Source: an uncultured Gemmatimonadaceae bacterium (lineage in GTDB: Bacteria; Gemmatimonadota; Gemmatimonadetes; Gemmatimonadales; Gemmatimonadaceae). Taken from it: a DNA stretch of 64,000 nt. The stretch lies in the NCBI GenBank assembly GCA_963716745.1, contig OY970320.1, positions 1,376,001 to 1,440,000 on the forward strand. The letters are read 5' to 3'. How positions within the stretch are numbered: the stretch's first letter is position 1; every line of letters begins with the position of its first letter. This document shows positions 44,784-52,139 of the stretch, piece by piece. The position numbers and the translations under genes are program-made. The notes under the pieces were generated by a model that made no database searches, was not told where the DNA came from, and saw only the letters and a program-made list of their open reading frames with translations.

Positions 44784-47700
44784 ATGATCCACCTGCAGAG
44801 CCTGGGCCAGTGCCTGATCTCCATTGGCGCAACGCGTCTCGCGCCGAATGCGCGCATGCTGTTCGCGAGCGCGCTGTTCGTGGCCGTGGAAGGGCGCCGG
44901 AAGATCGAGCGCAGCCGGTTCACCGAGACACTCTGGCCCGAACTCCCCGAATCGAACGGCACGCATGCGATGCGGCAGATGTGCTATCGCCTGCGTTCGT
45001 GCGGCATGCCGATCGAGGCGAGCGGCGCGCGGCTCGTGCTGCCCGACGGCGCCGTTTCGACCGACTTCGACGATCTGCTCGGCGATCCGGCCGACGTTTC
45101 GCCCGAGGAGTTGCTCACCAGGATCCCCGGCGGGTTCCTGCCGGGCTACATGCCGCGCGTGTCCGATCCGTTCACCACGTGGGTGGAGGAGCAGCGCGCG
45201 CAGGTGAATGCCGCGCTGCGGCGACAGCTTGTGCGCCGCGATCACCGCGCGCCGAGCGGCGGGCGATTGGCAAGCGACCGAGAAGCTGAGCATGCGTTGC
45301 CTGGAGCTCGATCCGTTGAACGAACTCGCGACGTTGGCGTATGCGGAATCGATCGCGATGGACGGCAGCAAAGCGCGCGCGATCGCCGTGCTCGACCGGT
45401 ACTCGGCCGAGATCGGGCCGGCGTCCAAGCAGATCAGAGAGCCAATGCTCGCGCTGCGGCAGCGGATCATCGACTTGTATCCCGTGCCACCGGTGATCGA
45501 AGTCGAGCCGCCGCAGATCGGGCGCGAGGAGGAAATGTCGAAGCTGGACGCCGCGCTAAGCGAAGCGCGCGAAGGACACGGCAGCGCCTACGTGATCAGC
45601 GGCCCGCCGGGGATCGGGAAGACGCGCCTAGTCACCGAGTTCACGCGCGCGGCGGAACTGAAGGGCGTGAAGATCGCGCGGACCAACATGGGGCGGCATG
45701 ACGATCATCGGCCGCTCGGCGCATGGAGCGATCTCGTGCCGGCGCTTCGGCGGATGCCTGGGGCGGTGGGGATCGATCCGGAATCGATTCCGTATTTGAA
45801 ACGCTTGACCGGTCACGACGCCAAACAGGATTCGCCGAGCGCCGAGAGTCAGGATGCGGAGTATTTGTTCGCGCGCATCAGACTTTCCATCGTCGATCTG
45901 GTCGCGGCGGTCGCGAGCGAGAGCTGCGCGATCCTATTGATCGAGGACATCCACTGGATGGACGAATGGAGTTGGGATGTGATGGCGGCACTGTCGAAGA
46001 AGCTCGCGACCACGGGCGTGTTGGTGTTGATGACGCGCCGGGACAGCGAGGACGGTTCGACCTCCATTCCGAAAGACGCCGCGGTACGCATGATGCCGTT
46101 GGCGGCGCTGAGCAATTCATACTGCCGCAGGTTGTTCGGCCACGTGGGACCAGCGAAGCGCTCCAGCGAGGAAGAATTCATCGAGTGGTGCGTACGGACA
46201 AGCGCCGGCAATCCATACTTCCTCATCGAACTCGGCCGTCGCGCGTCGAAAGCAGATGGTCGATTCCAGGCTCCCCCGAGCCTAACCAAACTGATATCTG
46301 AGCGGTTCTTGGACGTGACGCCGCTTTCGCGGCGGGTACTTCAGGTGACGGCTGTACTAGGAAGACACTCGACGATTGTGCGTATCGAGAAGGTCTTGGA
46401 CGAACGAAGGATTAGCCTGCTTGACAGTCTCGATGAACTATCTCGCCATTCGCTCATTGTGAGTGAGGGCGAAAGAGTCATCTGCCGACACGACCTTTTG
46501 GGAATGTCGGCACTGAGTGACGTCTCGCCGTTCTCACTGCGACTAATTCATCGCCACTCAGCAGCGGTACTCGAGGCGGAGATTAATGATTCGTCCGAAG
46601 TCGGACATCTGTGGGATTGCGCGAGGCATCTTGAGTCGGCCAACGAACGCCATCTCGCACTAAGAATGCTAGAGCGGTGCTCTATCCGCGCGATCTCCAT
46701 GGGCGTCCCTCGAGACGCGATTCGAGTACTTGAATTCGCAATTTCTCTCGATCCAACAGGCGAGATGCACACTCGCCTGCTGCGTCGCCTCGTATCGGCG
46801 CTCTACTTCGTGAGAGACTACCCTCAGTGCGTCGCCCTCTACGCCCAACTCCGCATCGCCGAGAGCGATAGCCTCAGGGTGGTACCCCACCACTCGGAGC
46901 AAGAGTTATATGCGGTGGATGCGAGCCACTACTCGACCGGACCATCTTCAATCGGCTTAGAGAGAAGCATGGCGTGTGTCTTGGATGGGCGCGCGACTCC
47001 AGAACATCGTGTGGAGGCGGCGCTCGTCGCAGTGAAGCTGGCTAGCAACCTTTTCGCGCGGCCAGAGGGTGAAAAAGCATTTTCAGTGGTCGAGCCACTA
47101 TTGGAGCTAGTAGATCCCGCGCTCTCGACGGAATTCCTGCTGGTCTATGAGGGTTCGTTCGGCACCGCCATCGCGTGCGGAGCGGCGGCGGTTCGCCTAC
47201 GTAACATCCTTCGGGAGACGCAGTCTCCAGGGCTTCGATTCCGGTCCATTGGCCAGTGCGCCGAGGGGCTCCATATAGGTGGATGCACTGCGGAGGCGCT
47301 CGAATTGGTTGAGGAGGCAATCTCGCTTAGCGAGAAGATCAGCCTTGCACGCGGCAATAGGTGGGCTCGTCAGTTGAGGACGCGATTCCAGCTCGCCCTC
47401 GGCGATACGAAGGGCGCGAGAAATTCCCTTGTCCTCGTCGATACGGACGACGATGCATTCTCTCCTGTCGAGGCAATTCGGGGCTTCGAATACGCCGCGC
47501 GCCTCGCGCTACTAGAGGAGGACTACGACTCGGCCGCCCTGTTTCTGGAGCGACTCCATAAGACGATGGACTTCGCGTGGCCGAGGGCGATTCGGCATCA
47601 CAGCGGCCTGACCGCGCTTCTCAGGATAAGGCGTGATGGCTGGCTTCCGTCCAACGACGAAATGGCACGACTAGTGGAGGTGCACATTGAGGGTCGGGGA

Positions 47701-47868
47701 GAAATCCACCACGATTTCTACCTCTACGCTATTTCGTACGCCTTTGAGGTGCGTGGCGAGTGGTCACGCTTCTTGCAACTGAGCACCGAATACGTTGACA
47801 AGTTCCGATTTGAGCGTAGTGCGATCCTCCTGCAGTTAAGCGAGCGAATGGCACTGCATTTAAAGTAA
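44784..47868 (+). CDS. BTAD/SARP-like + P-loop NTPase (STAND-like) + TPR-like regulator (frameshift ~45234)
   Basis: MIHLQSLG...LWPE N-terminus, LELDPLNELA BTAD-like segment, GPPGIGKT Walker A, LLIEDIHW Walker B, GNPYFL, helical C-terminus. Confidence 0.8.
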
Positions 47869-47892
47869 AAAAACCGCCGGATTGCGGCGGTT
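47867..47892 (-). terminator. Intrinsic terminator of the HD-GYP transcript
   Basis: aaccgccg/cggcggtt stem with a 7-A run giving a U tail on the minus strand. Confidence 0.75.
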
Positions 47893-47961
47893 AGTGCGAA
47901 CTGGAACGGCAGTCTACGGCTCTCTTGATGTGTGGCGACCAAGAGATAACGAGCGTGGAGG

Positions 47962-49314
47962 CTAGGACATTCCCCTAACGGCGATCCTATCTGACTGACT
48001 AGCGACCGCCGGGGCGGAGCGATCAGGAGTAGACTCTCTAGCGTTCGGCGCAAATAGTAATCCAAACATCGGGCTCGCGAGCAGCCTATCGCACATCTCG
48101 GGATCGAATTGTTTGCCACGAAATTTAACAAGCTCAGACCGAACCTGCGTCTCTGTCAGAGCCTTGCGATATGGTCGGTCGGTCGTCATGGCATCAATCG
48201 TGTCGGCAAACAATACAATTCGCGCCGCCAGCGGAATTTGCTCCCCCTGGAGTCCATCAGGGTATCCGGTTCCGTCCCAGTTTTCGTGATGATGTCGGAC
48301 GGGTGCTACAATGTCCTTTAAGTGAGAAACCGTCGAAACAAGGTCCGCGCTCTTGATCGGATGGGTTTGCATCACGGACCACTCCGCAGGGCTCAGTTTT
48401 TCCGGTTTGCGCAGGATTGGAGCGTACATTTCGTGAATCTTGCCTACGTCATGAAGCAACGCCGCAACGCCGACGCGCTCGAGCTCCGATCCCCCCATAC
48501 CAATCGCGCGAGCAATAATTTTCGAATACTGTGAAACGCGCCTTGAATGCCCGGACGTATACGGATCTCGCGCCTCGATGGCCTTCACCATCAATTCGAG
48601 TAACTCTTGGTTGACACGCTCGAGTTCGTAGTTTGTCTTGTACAGTTGTCGAACGGCGAGAAGCGGTATGGTGAGTGCGAGTACCCCCCACACGCCGAGG
48701 CGCAGGAACGCGAAGGCGAACAAGTAGACGATCGGACTAAAGATCAGGTCATACGCGAATGCGCGACCGACCGCTCGTCTCCAGCTCGGCAGAATAGGTT
48801 TGTTTGCGCTCACAGCTATAATGCCCTGCACGGCGAGCGCGTTGACCGTCATGAACACCACAGCCAATCCGATAACGGCTGGCAGTTTTCCCAGCGGAAG
48901 GGAGCGCTGGTAGGTTGCCTGCTCGGCCAGCATGCCGTCGCCCCCCATCGCGCGAAATACGAGCACGCCGAGCGCACCCGCGAACATCATTTGCGCGGTA
49001 TTGAACAGCACCTTTACGGGCGCGTTCCTCCGCACGGCGTTGGATAGGAAGATGGCGACGGAAAACGCCGCAACGGCGAGTGCAGACGGAGACAAGAGGA
49101 GTGCAGCGAGGTAAGGTATGAATGTGATCGAACCTCGCACGCCATGACTCAAGTCGTAACCGAACAACTCCGCCGCGATGGCAATTCCCGTCAGCAGAAA
49201 AACCGCGGTAATCGCTGCGCCATCTGCCCTGGGGGCGCTAGCAAGAACCGCCCCATACGAAAGCAGGGCGCCAACGGCGACAAGACTCACATAAAGTTGA
49301 ACCTTAGAGCGCAT
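47962..49314 (-). CDS. Multi-TM membrane-sensor HD-GYP cyclic-dinucleotide phosphodiesterase
   Basis: About 7 TM segments, then ARDPYTSGHSRRV, LHDVGK, HHENWDGTGYP, DAMTTDRPYR. Confidence 0.92.
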   Translation of the reverse strand: MRSKVQLYVSLVAVGALLSYGAVLASAPRADGAAITAVFLLTGIAIAAELFGYDLSHGVRGSITFIPYLAALLLSPSALAVAAFSVAIFLSNAVRRNAPVKVLFNTAQMMFAGALGVLVFRAMGGDGMLAEQATYQRSLPLGKLPAVIGLAVVFMTVNALAVQGIIAVSANKPILPSWRRAVGRAFAYDLIFSPIVYLFAFAFLRLGVWGVLALTIPLLAVRQLYKTNYELERVNQELLELMVKAIEARDPYTSGHSRRVSQYSKIIARAIGMGGSELERVGVAALLHDVGKIHEMYAPILRKPEKLSPAEWSVMQTHPIKSADLVSTVSHLKDIVAPVRHHHENWDGTGYPDGLQGEQIPLAARIVLFADTIDAMTTDRPYRKALTETQVRSELVKFRGKQFDPEMCDRLLASPMFGLLFAPNARESTPDRSAPAVASQSDRIAVRGMS

Positions 49315-49353
49315 GCGATTCCCACGTTTGTAGACAAGAACCCCCGCCCCGGA

Positions 49354-49440
49354 CTATTGCCACTGCTGTGTATCGAAAGACGTCGGAATACCCTTGATAA
49401 ACTTGGCGAGCTTCGCCCAAGCCTTCAGCAAATGCATCAT
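49354..49440 (-). CDS. Small peptide, 28 aa: MMHLLKAWAKLAKFIKGIPTSFDTQQWQ
   Basis: Manual translation; AAAGGGGGGTGA RBS about 7 nt upstream; TAG stop about 40 nt before the HD-GYP ATG. Confidence 0.7.
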   Translation of the reverse strand: MMHLLKAWAKLAKFIKGIPTSFDTQQWQ

Positions 49441-49737
49441 TGTCGCGTCACCCCCCTTTAGGTCTTGTCATGCCCCGACGCTCGTCGGTGAACATGCAAA
49501 TAGGTAGGCTCCGCTCAATTGCTTGGTCTGGCCCGCTCAGCTTCGCTAACTGCTTTGTACAACTGCTTAGCCGAGAACGGGGGTTCGTTTCAGTTTTTCG
49601 ATCGTGAGGGTGTTGGTCGGTTCAAAAGTTGAATGTCATTCCCTTCCACTCTCCCGCGGACACCAATCGCGCGACGACGCCTCAGCGCCCCCACGCGTTC
49701 ACTTCCCCTGCTATAACCCCAGCCGCTGCGCCCTACT

Positions 49738-50505
49738 CTACTTCGCGCGGCCCAACCACCGGTTCGTCGCGTCCAGCACCGCCAACACGCTCGCGGTCTC
49801 CGGACTGTCCTTCACCTGACAGCTCCCCGTCAGCAACACCCTGTCCCTTCCGTCACGCGCCGCGATCCCGACGAACACATGCTCGGCGTCGAACGCCTCG
49901 AACATCTTGCACCCTTCCACCGACACGAATCGCGCGTCCGGCTCCGCCTGCACGATAGCCAAGAGCGCCGCTCGCGCCGCCAGCTCCGCGCGCGACCGCT
50001 CGGTCTCCGCCCCTTCGGCTTCTCCAATGTAGGACTTCTCTCCCTTCCGTAGCGTCACGCGGCACGTGACTCCCTGCACCCGCGAACGCCGCACCTCCAC
50101 ATCCTCGAAATACAGCATCCGGCTGGGCAGCGTTGCGGCCTGCACCACCGCCGCCGCCTGCGCCACGCTCTGCGCCCGCGCGTCCGCGGTCTGCTGCGGA
50201 TCCACGCTCGTCGCCACCGAGATCTTCCGGTGGTCCACCTTCATCCCCAAGTGCGCGATCAGCGCGCTCTCGACGTTCCGCACGGTCTGCTTCGGATTCA
50301 CTTCGGCGCTCGTGAGCAAATGGATCTCGCTCACCGCACCGTCGTCCGCCGCCATGATCCGAGCCGACAGCACTCCCGGCAGAGTCAACAGCAGATCCTC
50401 CGCGCGTTTGATCGGCAAGACGCTGCCGGCGATCGGAGAATGCGATGAGTGGCCAGGCACGTTCAGAGCCATCGATTCCGTAGCGAGAGGTGACGAGCGC
50501 GCCAT
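49738..50505 (-). CDS. Conserved-looking hypothetical protein (start may be 50472)
   Basis: GVLSARI...EIHLL...PKQTVRNVESAL...VDHRKISVA N-terminal domain; C-terminal LTGS...AVLDATNR domain. Confidence 0.75.
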   Translation of the reverse strand: MARSSPLATESMALNVPGHSSHSPIAGSVLPIKRAEDLLLTLPGVLSARIMAADDGAVSEIHLLTSAEVNPKQTVRNVESALIAHLGMKVDHRKISVATSVDPQQTADARAQSVAQAAAVVQAATLPSRMLYFEDVEVRRSRVQGVTCRVTLRKGEKSYIGEAEGAETERSRAELAARAALLAIVQAEPDARFVSVEGCKMFEAFDAEHVFVGIAARDGRDRVLLTGSCQVKDSPETASVLAVLDATNRWLGRAK

Positions 50506-50609
50506 ATTGATTGCGTGTGCATCAAAACAATGTCAACTGCTACATTTTGCTACGGACTCCAGCCATTACTGCCACGCCGAATATCCCCGTAAAAGATTAG
50601 AAAATCAAG

Positions 50610-52139
50610 CTACCCGCTCTCGGGGAGATTATACTCCTTTAACTTCCGGTACATAGTTCGCTCGCCGATCCCCAGCATATCGGCCGCTTTTCGACGGTTC
50701 CCGCGCGTCTCGCGCAACGCGTGCACGATCGCCGCCCGCTCGATCTCGGCCATCGTCATCCCCGCCTCGACTTCCAACGTATTTACCGGCGCACTCGGCG
50801 CCGCTTCGAGCGCCGACACCGCGCTCACGCCCGCCGGCCGCACTTCGCCCACGATCTCGCCGCGCAACGGACGCCCATCATCCACGCGCCGGCGCAATTC
50901 CTCGAGCTGCAGCTTCAGTTCCACGAGCGAGCGCACGATGAACTCCAGCTCGCGACCGCCCGCCTCGTGCTGCCCTCGCACCACCGCGCCGACCGGCACC
51001 GGCAGGAACCTCGCGCTCCCCCCCTCGCGCAGCTCGCGCGGGATGTCCGCCGCGGTGATCTCACGCCCCGGCGACAGCACGACCATGCTCTCCACCAGGT
51101 TCCGCAGCTCGCGCACGTTCCCCGGCCACGGATAGTCGCTCAGGATCTGCATCGCGCTCGCCGAAATGCCATGGAACGCGCGGTCGTGCTCCTTGGCGAA
51201 TTCTTGCACGAACGTACGCACGAGTAGCGGTATGTCCTCACGCCTCTCGCGCAGTGGCGGCAGGTAAATGTTCAGCACGTTCAACCGGTAATACAGATCG
51301 GCGCGGAACGTCCCCTGCTCCACCGCATCGCGCAACGGACGGTTGGATGCCGCAATGATCCGGACATCCACTTTGATCGGCGTCGCGCCGCCCACCCGCA
51401 CGAACTCCCGCTGCTCCAGCACGCGCAACAGCTTCACCTGCGTGCTGAGCGGCGCCTCGCCGATCTCGTCCAGGAACAACGTCCCGCCATTCGCCAGCTC
51501 GAAGCGCCCCAGCCTTCGCTCCGCCGCCCCGGTGAAAGCACCCTTCTCGTGACCGAACAGCTCGCTCTCCAGCAGGCTCTCCGGCAGCGCTCCAATGTTC
51601 ACGGCAATGAAAGGCTTTCCTCGGCGCGGACTCAACCGTTGCAACGCACGAGCAACGATCTCCTTGCCGGTGCCGCTCTCGCCTTCAATGAGCACTGTGC
51701 TCGAGACCGGCGCCATCTGCTCGATCTTCACCATCACTTCGCGCAATGGCGCGCTCTCGCCAATGAGACCGGTCTCACTCGTGAGCCGGCGGCGGTCGAG
51801 CAGGCGCCGCACGCCATCGAACACTTCTTCGCTGTCGGCGGGCTTGGGGTAGATCTCGACGTAGCCGAGTGCGCGCAAACGGTCGAGCGTGGCCTCGTCG
51901 GCGACGTCGGCAAGTCCGATCACGCTCGCGCCGTCCCAGAGCTGGCGCTTCAGGAGCTGCACCGTGGCCTGCTCGGTGAGGTTGCCGGTGACGACAATGA
52001 CGTCCGGCTTCTCGCGCGTGAACGCCGCCTGCACGTCGTCCATGGGGCTCACGAGCGCGGTGGAGATCCCCGCGGCCTCGAGGCGAGCGTTGAGCCGCAC
52101 CGCCGGCTCGACATCGGTGAGCGTGACGAGGACCTTCAC
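50610..52139 (-). CDS. Sigma54-dependent enhancer-binding regulator (NtrC-like)
   Basis: [29 protein letters not shown]-terminal Fis HTH. Confidence 0.95.

Follow-up and report, generated by a model that had tools for sequence, protein, structure and literature searches.

A conserved small open reading frame with a tryptophan tail and a structured leader RNA upstream of a predicted MASE9/HD-GYP phosphodiesterase gene of Gemmatimonadaceae

The window analysed here is a stretch of 64,000 nucleotides (nt) from contig OY970320.1 (assembly GCA_963716745.1, positions 1,376,001 to 1,440,000) of an uncultured bacterium of the family Gemmatimonadaceae. Its minus strand contains a gene for a 255-residue protein, a leader region, a small open reading frame (ORF) of 28 codons, and a gene for a predicted membrane-bound phosphodiesterase of cyclic di-GMP (c-di-GMP), which follow each other in the direction of transcription. 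The small ORF begins with ATG at position 49440, ends at position 49354, and has the translation MMHLLKAWAKLAKFIKGIPTSFDTQQWQ. The sequence AAAGGGGGGTGA is situated 7 nt on the 5' side of its start codon, and 39 nt separate its TAG stop codon from the next ATG, at position 49314. The features are:

49354..49440, minus strand: small ORF (28 codons and a stop codon) for a microprotein with a Trp tail (Shine-Dalgarno motif, Trp tail, ratio of non-synonymous to synonymous polymorphism)
49445..49459, minus strand: extended Shine-Dalgarno (SD) sequence of the small ORF, AAAGGGGGGUGACGC (motif G[GA][GA]GG[TA]GA and a start codon in 69 of 72 loci)
47962..49314, minus strand: gene of 450 codons for a protein that joins a MASE9 membrane domain to an HD-GYP phosphodiesterase domain (Pfam, catalytic motifs)
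49738..50505, minus strand: gene for the 255-residue protein, co-oriented, with two small regulatory-type alpha/beta domains

The HD-GYP protein matches the Pfam families HD_5 (E 4e-35) and HD (E 3e-19), and its residues 43-205 match MASE9 (PF20972) with 33.9 bits against a cut-off of 24.3. The catalytic motifs HD, HHE and GYP are positioned at residues 288, 342 and 350, and their residues do not vary across 55 orthologues. Hydrophobic stretches of the protein are compatible with 7-9 membrane segments. By its domains and motifs, the protein is a MASE9-HD-GYP phosphodiesterase, and it is predicted to hydrolyse c-di-GMP. Its architecture and catalytic motifs match those of the MASE9-HD-GYP phosphodiesterases described by Galperin and co-workers, whose passages on MASE9 do not mention an associated small ORF or leader RNA (bioRxiv 10.1101/2021.11.05.467447).

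The original prediction for this locus, made from the letters of the sequence, described a 28-codon ORF with a strong ribosome-binding site in front of a multi-transmembrane HD-GYP gene, a terminator behind that gene, and a co-oriented gene upstream. All of these are present as described, the upstream gene being that of the 255-residue protein, which contains the motifs quoted for it.

Conservation and coding potential of the small ORF

Two sets of loci were compared. The second set was derived from the best 80 of 533 confirmed relatives in an alignment of the 255-residue protein; all 80 originate from metagenome-assembled genomes (MAGs) labelled Gemmatimonadota or a lower rank, apart from one labelled merely 'bacterium'. 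The original prediction also mentioned similar arrangements in other phyla; no other phylum is named among these 80 loci. The gene for the 255-residue protein is accompanied by an HD-GYP gene on the same strand in 72 loci of both sets, and 29 of the 80 loci of the second set end too early to be judged. Of 41 related genomes, G000 among them, 40 have matches to the HD-GYP protein at E <= 1e-30, approximately 25 of these matches being full-length. A tblastn search with the peptide sequence gave matches within the genus of the window only.

Each of 21 syntenic loci has a same-strand ORF of 19-35 codons whose end is 22-63 nt away from the downstream HD-GYP start, or 144 nt in a single case, and the peptides of 18 of them have Trp among their last three residues. 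In 69 of the 72 loci, the motif G[GA][GA]GG[TA]GA precedes CGC, a start codon, and an ORF of 16-35 codons, and two of the three loci lacking the motif still encode a Trp-tailed peptide downstream of a variant SD sequence. Within the SD region, GGNGGTGA and C171 are invariant columns of alignment A2. Trp is located within the final three residues in 64 of the 69 loci, corresponding to 58 of 63 distinct peptides (92%), as against 37 of 835 (4.4%) other ORFs of at least 16 codons from the same 66 intergenic regions. These counts bear out the expectation of the original prediction that ORFs for 20-40 residues, led by a ribosome-binding site and ending in a C-terminal Trp, should be detectable upstream of homologous HD-GYP genes. 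One of the five exceptions without Trp is locus L006 (genome G012), and a near-identical variant of it occurs in the public MAG of locus L095, so that no conclusion depends on G012 by itself.

The peptides differ strongly from one another, and the column identity of their alignment averages 17%. Their common plan is a hydrophobic segment in which L, A and F abound, followed by [D/G/E]-x-[V/Q/I]-[S/I/T]-W-x-stop. Trp accounts for 8.1% of the residues; up to four are present in a peptide of 16 residues, and 29 of the 63 peptides contain exactly one. T occupies codon position 2 in 40% of the small-ORF codons. The ratio of non-synonymous to synonymous polymorphism (pN/pS), calculated from 16 close and non-independent pairs, is 0.40 in frame, in contrast to 1.08 and 1.69 out of frame. 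The N-terminal part is constrained more tightly (0.32) than the last six codons (0.52). Searches of Pfam and NCBIfam with 38 of the 63 peptides, the others being shorter than 20 residues, returned single chance-level matches only (E at least 0.09). The comparative evidence identifies the 28-codon ORF as a real conserved gene of Gemmatimonadota soil bacteria, whose protein product is under purifying selection. None of the 21 sequencing runs listed for this DNA is recorded as RNA, and their shares are small (at most 0.16), a result that is neutral as to expression.

The stop codons of the small ORFs in 63 loci are TAG (30), TAA (19) and TGA (14). Among 41 long ORFs of the window, TGA is used 21 times, TAG 18 times and TAA twice; TAA looks enriched in the small ORFs relative to this baseline from one genome. 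A fusion of the small ORF with the HD-GYP gene in one MAG of the genus (L005 / L033, genome G002, 63% complete) was dismissed because of several frame breaks. The small ORF in this MAG has no stop codon and the HD-GYP frame is broken repeatedly, which is compatible with a pseudogene or with insertion and deletion errors.

The structured leader RNA

The approximately 300 nt between the gene for the 255-residue protein and the small ORF are nearly identical in four members of the genus. Boxes that are invariant over 54 leaders read AGCGAAG, GAGCGGG, GAGCGGAGCC-ACC, GAC, and GGNGGUGACGC. Folds of single sequences recurrently contain a 5' hairpin P1, a variable hairpin P3, and a helix formed by an anti-SD box and the SD sequence of the small ORF. 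In the anti-SD helix, GCG-GA-GCC-AA-CC is paired with GG-GA-GGU-GA-CGC, the latter being the SD sequence of the small ORF, and the helix is present in 22 of 25 single-sequence minimum free energy (MFE) folds. The MFE and centroid folds of this locus in the window both contain the anti-SD helix, P3, and a long-range helix P0, one strand of which is positioned beyond the small ORF. The elements of the leader in the window are:

49439..49586, minus strand: structured leader RNA, model R1, with the 5' hairpin P1, invariant GAGCGG-type boxes, the variable hairpin P3, and the anti-SD/SD helix (cmsearch)
49571..49586, minus strand: 5' strand of hairpin P1 (local) and likewise of helix P0 (long-range), GAACCCCCGUUCUCGG (duplex prediction, covariation across genera)
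49503..49516, minus strand: invariant anti-SD box, GAGCGGAGCCUACC (invariant columns of alignment A2, folds)
49467..49497, minus strand: hairpin P3, variable in sequence and kept in structure (compensatory changes in all 9 pairs of helices 7-9)
49338..49353, minus strand: 3' strand of helix P0, UCCGGGGCGGGGGUUC, which begins 1 nt past the small-ORF stop

The covariance model R1, which describes a motif of approximately 125-150 nt, was built from 25 leaders with a hand-structured seed. It supersedes an RNAalifold consensus of a plain MAFFT alignment, in which the hairpin arms are misaligned and only four pairs were obtained. A cmsearch with R1 gives exactly one match in 88 of 99 loci, every time downstream of the gene for the 255-residue protein. 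The leader of the window scores 83.5 bits and is the single match in the window's own genome (49439-49586). R1 matches 26 of 151 genomes in a sample of the phylum, including 23 of 31 genomes from the family of the window and 2 of 6 from a second family. The motif is also present in three closed genomes of 4.6-5.3 Mb.

In an alignment that was itself fitted to model R1, 85.6% of the cells are paired, compared with 35-45% when the partners are slid. Changes on both sides occur in 17 of 28 pairs and in 232 cells, as against 60.3 +/- 9.8 cells in shuffled alignments, and none of 500 shuffles reaches any of the measures. Every pair of P3 covaries. The leader is a structured RNA, judged by the covariation that supports its conserved helices, and is predicted to be cis-regulatory. 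It appears to be a new motif. An Rfam search of positions 47500-51000 at E values up to 1 left the leader unmatched; the sole match was a sub-threshold one to porB on the terminator hairpin downstream of the HD-GYP gene.

The invariant boxes at 49503-49550 of the minus strand contain (G/A)AG triplets with a spacing of 2 nt (GAGcgAAGcuGAGcgGG ... GAGcgGAGcc). This pattern recalls the NAG-repeat sites of RNA-binding attenuation proteins, and the 255-residue protein is a candidate binder. In two loci of a sister family (L020, L022), about 1 kb separates the gene for the 255-residue protein from a divergent leader that escapes model R1, and this space is probably occupied by an extra gene.

A putative riboregulated unit

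The 5' strand of P1 (49586-49571) is complementary not only to its local partner but also to the stretch 49353-49338; the second partner begins 1-5 nt past the stop codon of the small ORF. The G-run in the 3' strand of the resulting helix P0 is located 9-14 nt before the HD-GYP start in most loci, where it is the ribosome-binding region of the HD-GYP gene. P1 and P0 are mutually exclusive, because both use the same 5' strand. The strands of P0 change together across genera, and some loci are wholly unlike the window's copy on both strands and yet complementary. In an anchor-free test, the 115-nt 5' part of the leaders was compared with the 32 nt after each stop codon. Cognate segments have a mean advantage of 5.4 kcal/mol in pairing over non-cognate segments, and the cognate pair belongs to the top 10% in 27 of 66 cases with the 5' segment fixed and in 35 of 66 with the 3' segment fixed, where about 7 are expected.

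In one genome, the leader and the HD-GYP gene, along with a Trp-tailed ORF of 24 codons, are jointly inverted with respect to the gene for the 255-residue protein and that for a neighbouring sigma-54 activator (L127, G017:C5; L126, G017:C26). Since these three elements are inverted jointly, and a paralogue of the enzyme in the same genome lacks both of the others, the unit is considered to consist of the leader, the small ORF, and the HD-GYP gene. The original prediction had missed the structured leader and the long-range helix, which make the ORF a likely cis-regulatory leader ORF.

We propose that the leader RNA, the translated small ORF, and the MASE9/HD-GYP gene constitute one riboregulated unit, in which translation of the small ORF would unlock the phosphodiesterase and the ORF product may act on MASE9. 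We assign this reading a probability of roughly 0.5. The anti-SD box would pair with the SD sequence of the small ORF, and a trigger that opens this helix, which could be a ligand, a protein, or temperature, would gate translation of the ORF. The 5' strand of the leader would pair either locally, in P1, or with the G-run past the small-ORF stop, in P0. A ribosome that completes the small ORF would be positioned on P0, unwind the helix, and expose the HD-GYP start or be handed over to it. Synthesis of the phosphodiesterase would thereby depend on translation of the small ORF, which amounts to translational coupling through a leader ORF. The role of the product is less certain: it would be a hydrophobic or amphipathic helix that ends with [D/G/E]-x-x-x-W-x and acts in trans on MASE9 at the membrane. 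Action of the peptide in trans is probable, because the whole peptide is constrained.

Regulation of this type has precedents. In the B12 riboswitches of Mycobacterium tuberculosis ppe2 and metE, the 5' leader is structured and controls the translation of a short upstream ORF, which in turn is needed for translation of the downstream gene and sets its expression (PMC11260477). The leader described here differs in that it is outside Rfam, the product of its ORF is conserved and constrained as a protein, and the coupling is a prediction. In Clostridioides difficile, small membrane-associated proteins that control sporulation are encoded behind class I c-di-GMP riboswitches acting by termination (PMC13724677), so that a structured leader likewise precedes a very small hydrophobic protein in a c-di-GMP context. 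By contrast, the present locus belongs to another phylum, no sequence or RNA-family relation to the clostridial systems was found, and it is a phosphodiesterase gene that follows the small ORF within the same unit.

A direct contact of the peptide with MASE9 was modelled by co-folding MASE9 residues 1-240 (alignment of 55 rows) with the peptide (alignment of 63 rows). The interface score ipSAE was 0.43, 0.41 and 0.41 in three runs and 0.01 in the best of three controls, a result that was graded as weak support. The runs share at least 89% of their contacts, and the pLDDT (predicted local distance difference test) of the partner is at least 56. In the calibration, which included no protein shorter than 30 residues, 116 of 157 solved complexes attained the mark, only 18 of the 157 doing so with a score of 0.60 or less; of 215 mismatches, 2 attained it, both within that lower range. 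The passages on MASE9 in the paper cited above place ligand binding by the domain probably inside the membrane and name no ligand (bioRxiv 10.1101/2021.11.05.467447). The contact is a lead only, to which the predicted complexes lend weak support. The original prediction had proposed the peptide as an exported or membrane-bound ligand of the HD-GYP protein. The linkage of the small ORF to a multi-transmembrane HD-GYP gene stands, and a direct contact of the peptide with MASE9 has the weak support of the co-fold; the idea of export is not supported, and no export motif was seen in the peptides.

Several observations weigh against the proposed unit or parts of it. In the sister family, R1 has no match among 72 genomes, but a divergent form of the leader can be recognised there by eye. 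The anti-SD and SD strands (helices 4-5) do not vary, so that covariation neither confirms nor refutes the helix between them. The fold of the locus in the window, taken as a whole, is not more stable than those of shuffled sequences (z -1.14), 27 of 200 of which fold as well. The G-run of the window is 26 nt before the HD-GYP ATG, beyond the normal reach of an SD sequence, and masking by P0 may therefore be indirect in this genome; a second motif, GGGAA, is closer to this ATG than the G-run. The full-length HD-GYP paralogue of genome G017 has neither a leader nor a small ORF. The length of the peptides ranges from 16 to 35 residues, and the genus of the window has a cationic amphipathic helix while most relatives have a hydrophobic one, which would be odd for a fixed membrane partner. 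According to the co-folding tool, a pass of the weak grade is mistaken in the majority of cases, unless the pairing was already probable on other grounds.

An alternative that we consider possible, though rather unlikely, is that the small ORF acts solely in cis as an arrest-type leader peptide. The nascent [D/G/E]xxxW-x-stop end would stall the ribosome in response to a small molecule or to the supply of tRNA-Trp and hold P0 open, and the released peptide would have no function. Leaders of the TnaC, Erm and SpeFL types are analogues. The arrest reading would account for a conserved C-terminal motif that adjoins the stop codon, with P0 beginning 1-5 nt later, as well as for the abundance of Trp and the variable length of the peptides. 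However, the N-terminal part is under tighter constraint than the last six codons and stays hydrophobic, neither of which is needed by arrest motifs alone; many of the peptides contain a single Trp, and the neighbourhood has no link to Trp metabolism.

Small proteins such as MgrB with PhoQ and KdpF with KdpABC are partners of membrane sensors and transporters, and TnaC, ErmCL and MifM are arrest leaders. The small ORF resembles both groups in being a tiny hydrophobic ORF located just upstream in the same unit, with a C-terminal motif adjacent to a helix that would mask an SD sequence. It differs from them in that no sequence relation was found, the length varies between 16 and 35 residues, and binding or stalling is hypothetical here. 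Coupling through the leader ORF, with a possible additional function of the peptide at MASE9, is the reading that we favour.

Neighbouring genes and remaining alternatives

The unit is flanked, and in part overlapped, by the following features:

50610..52139, minus strand: sigma-54-dependent activator (Pfam Sigma54_activat 6.1e-70, HTH_8)
47872..47892, minus strand: terminator-like hairpin with a T-run, on the 3' side of the HD-GYP gene
45208-47868, plus strand: convergent STAND gene, AAA_16/TPR, 886 residues (Pfam)
46575..49366, no strand assigned: genus-level hypervariable island, which takes in the sensor half of the STAND gene, all of the HD-GYP gene, and approximately 4-9 codons at the end of the small ORF

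The porB match on the terminator hairpin (47857-47910, plus strand) has 25.3 bits against a gathering score of 35.1 and an E value of 0.32, and is most likely due to chance.

In comparisons with three relatives from the genus, the flanks of the island are 84.6-94% identical in DNA, and within approximately 46575-49366 only the HD domain can be aligned, with 75.5-77.6% identity. The left boundary of the island is located in the STAND gene near residue 455, past the NTPase module, and the NTPase half is conserved at about 89% of nucleotides; the right boundary is inside the small ORF. Relative to two members of the genus, the protein identity is 99% and 96% for the 255-residue protein, 60% and 58% for the HD-GYP protein, and 30% and 46% for the C-terminal half of the STAND protein. 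The peptides of the genus, all of 28 residues, have the tails ..IPTSFDTQQWQ, ..IPAAFETQSWG and ..IPVDFATLNWG. The three HD-GYP alleles group in a single long-branched clade (99 in the Shimodaira-Hasegawa-like approximate likelihood ratio test of a quick tree), which points to fast divergence of the island in place and not to replacement from outside. The peptide tail and its putative receptor could be diversifying together, since the island covers both in four genomes of the genus; however, the alleles belong to one clade, and positive selection was not seen. An alternative is that both hitch-hike with a fast-evolving STAND sensor. A PADLOC search assigned the STAND, HD-GYP and 255-residue proteins to no defence family and gave generic P-loop, HD and AAA matches only.

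The position of the left boundary, after the NTPase module of the STAND protein, would also suit a microprotein that acts in trans on another partner, such as the TPR half of the STAND protein, which varies along with the island, or the 255-residue protein, or that acts alone in the membrane. TPR domains of RRNPP regulators bind short peptides, and the convergent STAND gene is downstream in 11 of 30 loci of the first set. Nevertheless, this synteny is partial and the identity of the STAND proteins is low (24-46%), whereas the leader, the small ORF, and the HD-GYP gene travel as one block. We regard a different partner as improbable.

The 255-residue protein has no family in Pfam or NCBIfam, and a search of the ESM Atlas returned only 'hypothetical protein' clusters from Gemmatimonadota. 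As far as seen in these sequences, it is restricted to this phylum. Its AlphaFold model has a pLDDT of 80.8. The C-terminal domain (residues 129-252) resembles the LiCMS/LeuA regulatory domain (Z 9.6, root-mean-square deviation 3.2, 110 aligned residues, Foldseek E 7e-5), which binds Ile or Leu in citramalate and isopropylmalate synthases. The N-terminal domain (residues 26-100) is ferredoxin-like, with Z scores of 8-9.5 to the C-terminal domains of CDF transporters and to ANL C-subdomains. The model has no enzyme fold, and the protein is therefore read as a ligand-sensing regulator and not as a peptide-processing factor. The proposal that the upstream gene provides a processing factor finds no support in these two putative ligand-binding regulatory domains.

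The sigma-54 activator has an AAA+ domain, a Fis-type helix-turn-helix, and a receiver-like N-terminus that does not match a Pfam receiver; at the phospho-acceptor position of this N-terminus, no Asp is obvious by eye. In 74 of 80 loci, the activator gene is found upstream of the gene for the 255-residue protein in the same orientation, with 56-82% identity. The pairing of the two is thus near-constant, and the 255-residue protein may be the sensing partner of the activator. Both are conserved neighbours of the unit and probably ligand-sensing regulators. Neither intergenic region contains a match to a sigma-54 consensus promoter pattern, which has 29 matches in the window against 22 expected, and a sigma-70 scan gave 0 matches. 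A scan upstream of the leader, with a flawed extraction of the minus strand, found an A-rich tract but no conserved promoter.

The character of these neighbours bears on a further reading, in which the small ORF encodes an exported and processed pheromone of the agr or ComX kind that MASE9 senses from outside, with the gene for the 255-residue protein supplying the processing factor. In ComQXP and agr, a short peptide gene is situated beside a multi-transmembrane sensor, ComX has an invariant Trp amid variable residues, and the peptide and receptor of ComX/ComP pherotypes are likewise hypervariable. The locus shares the short peptide gene next to a multi-transmembrane sensor and a pherotype-like hypervariability: the peptides have an invariant Trp among variable residues and an N-terminus conserved within the genus, tail and receptor are part of one hypervariable island, and the co-fold score of 0.41 against 0.01 lends weak support. 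However, the peptides, some as short as 16 residues, have no signal peptide, double-glycine motif or leader-core layout, and are too short for a leader plus a core. No transporter, protease, prenyltransferase or other modifying enzyme is conserved nearby, where the neighbours are the activator, the protein with regulatory folds, and the STAND NTPase. The receptor is not a histidine kinase and no response regulator accompanies it, and the last six codons of the ORF have no excess of amino-acid changes (pN/pS 0.52). Three of the four features that define the agr/ComQXP layout, namely a leader-core peptide with export, a processing enzyme, and a kinase with a response regulator, fail at this locus, and we consider the pheromone reading highly improbable.

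That the small ORF is untranslated, and has arisen incidentally because a long 5' untranslated region is conserved as RNA, is the least credible possibility, because the identity in nucleotides of the first approximately 16 codons within the genus, which would suit an untranslated leader, is outweighed by the open frame of similar length, the SD sequence and the start codon that persist in 69 of 72 loci despite the low column identity, by the frame-specific pN/pS, and by the excess of Trp ends over the controls.

A bolder form of the favoured reading is that the microprotein is an in-membrane ligand or subunit of MASE9, produced under the control of a new riboswitch-like class of RNA, and that, within a genus, specificity groups arise as the variable end of the peptide diversifies jointly with its receptor and with the STAND TPR sensor. 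This extension is improbable. If true, it would provide the first ligand for any MASE9 domain and a pherotype-like peptide system coupled straight to c-di-GMP turnover, with no kinase in between.

Literature searches returned no paper on this small ORF, leader or gene cluster. The comparisons described here connect a microprotein family and an RNA motif, neither of which was recognised by the libraries and searches applied, to one MASE9 phosphodiesterase across a bacterial family, and they indicate that an ORF of fewer than 30 codons, below the cut-offs of gene callers, can be called with confidence by comparative genomics alone. MASE-type membrane sensors are common in c-di-GMP enzymes, and the locus offers a handle on how such an enzyme may be switched. 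It also bears on the role of small ORFs upstream of sensors and on a possible new class of riboswitches.

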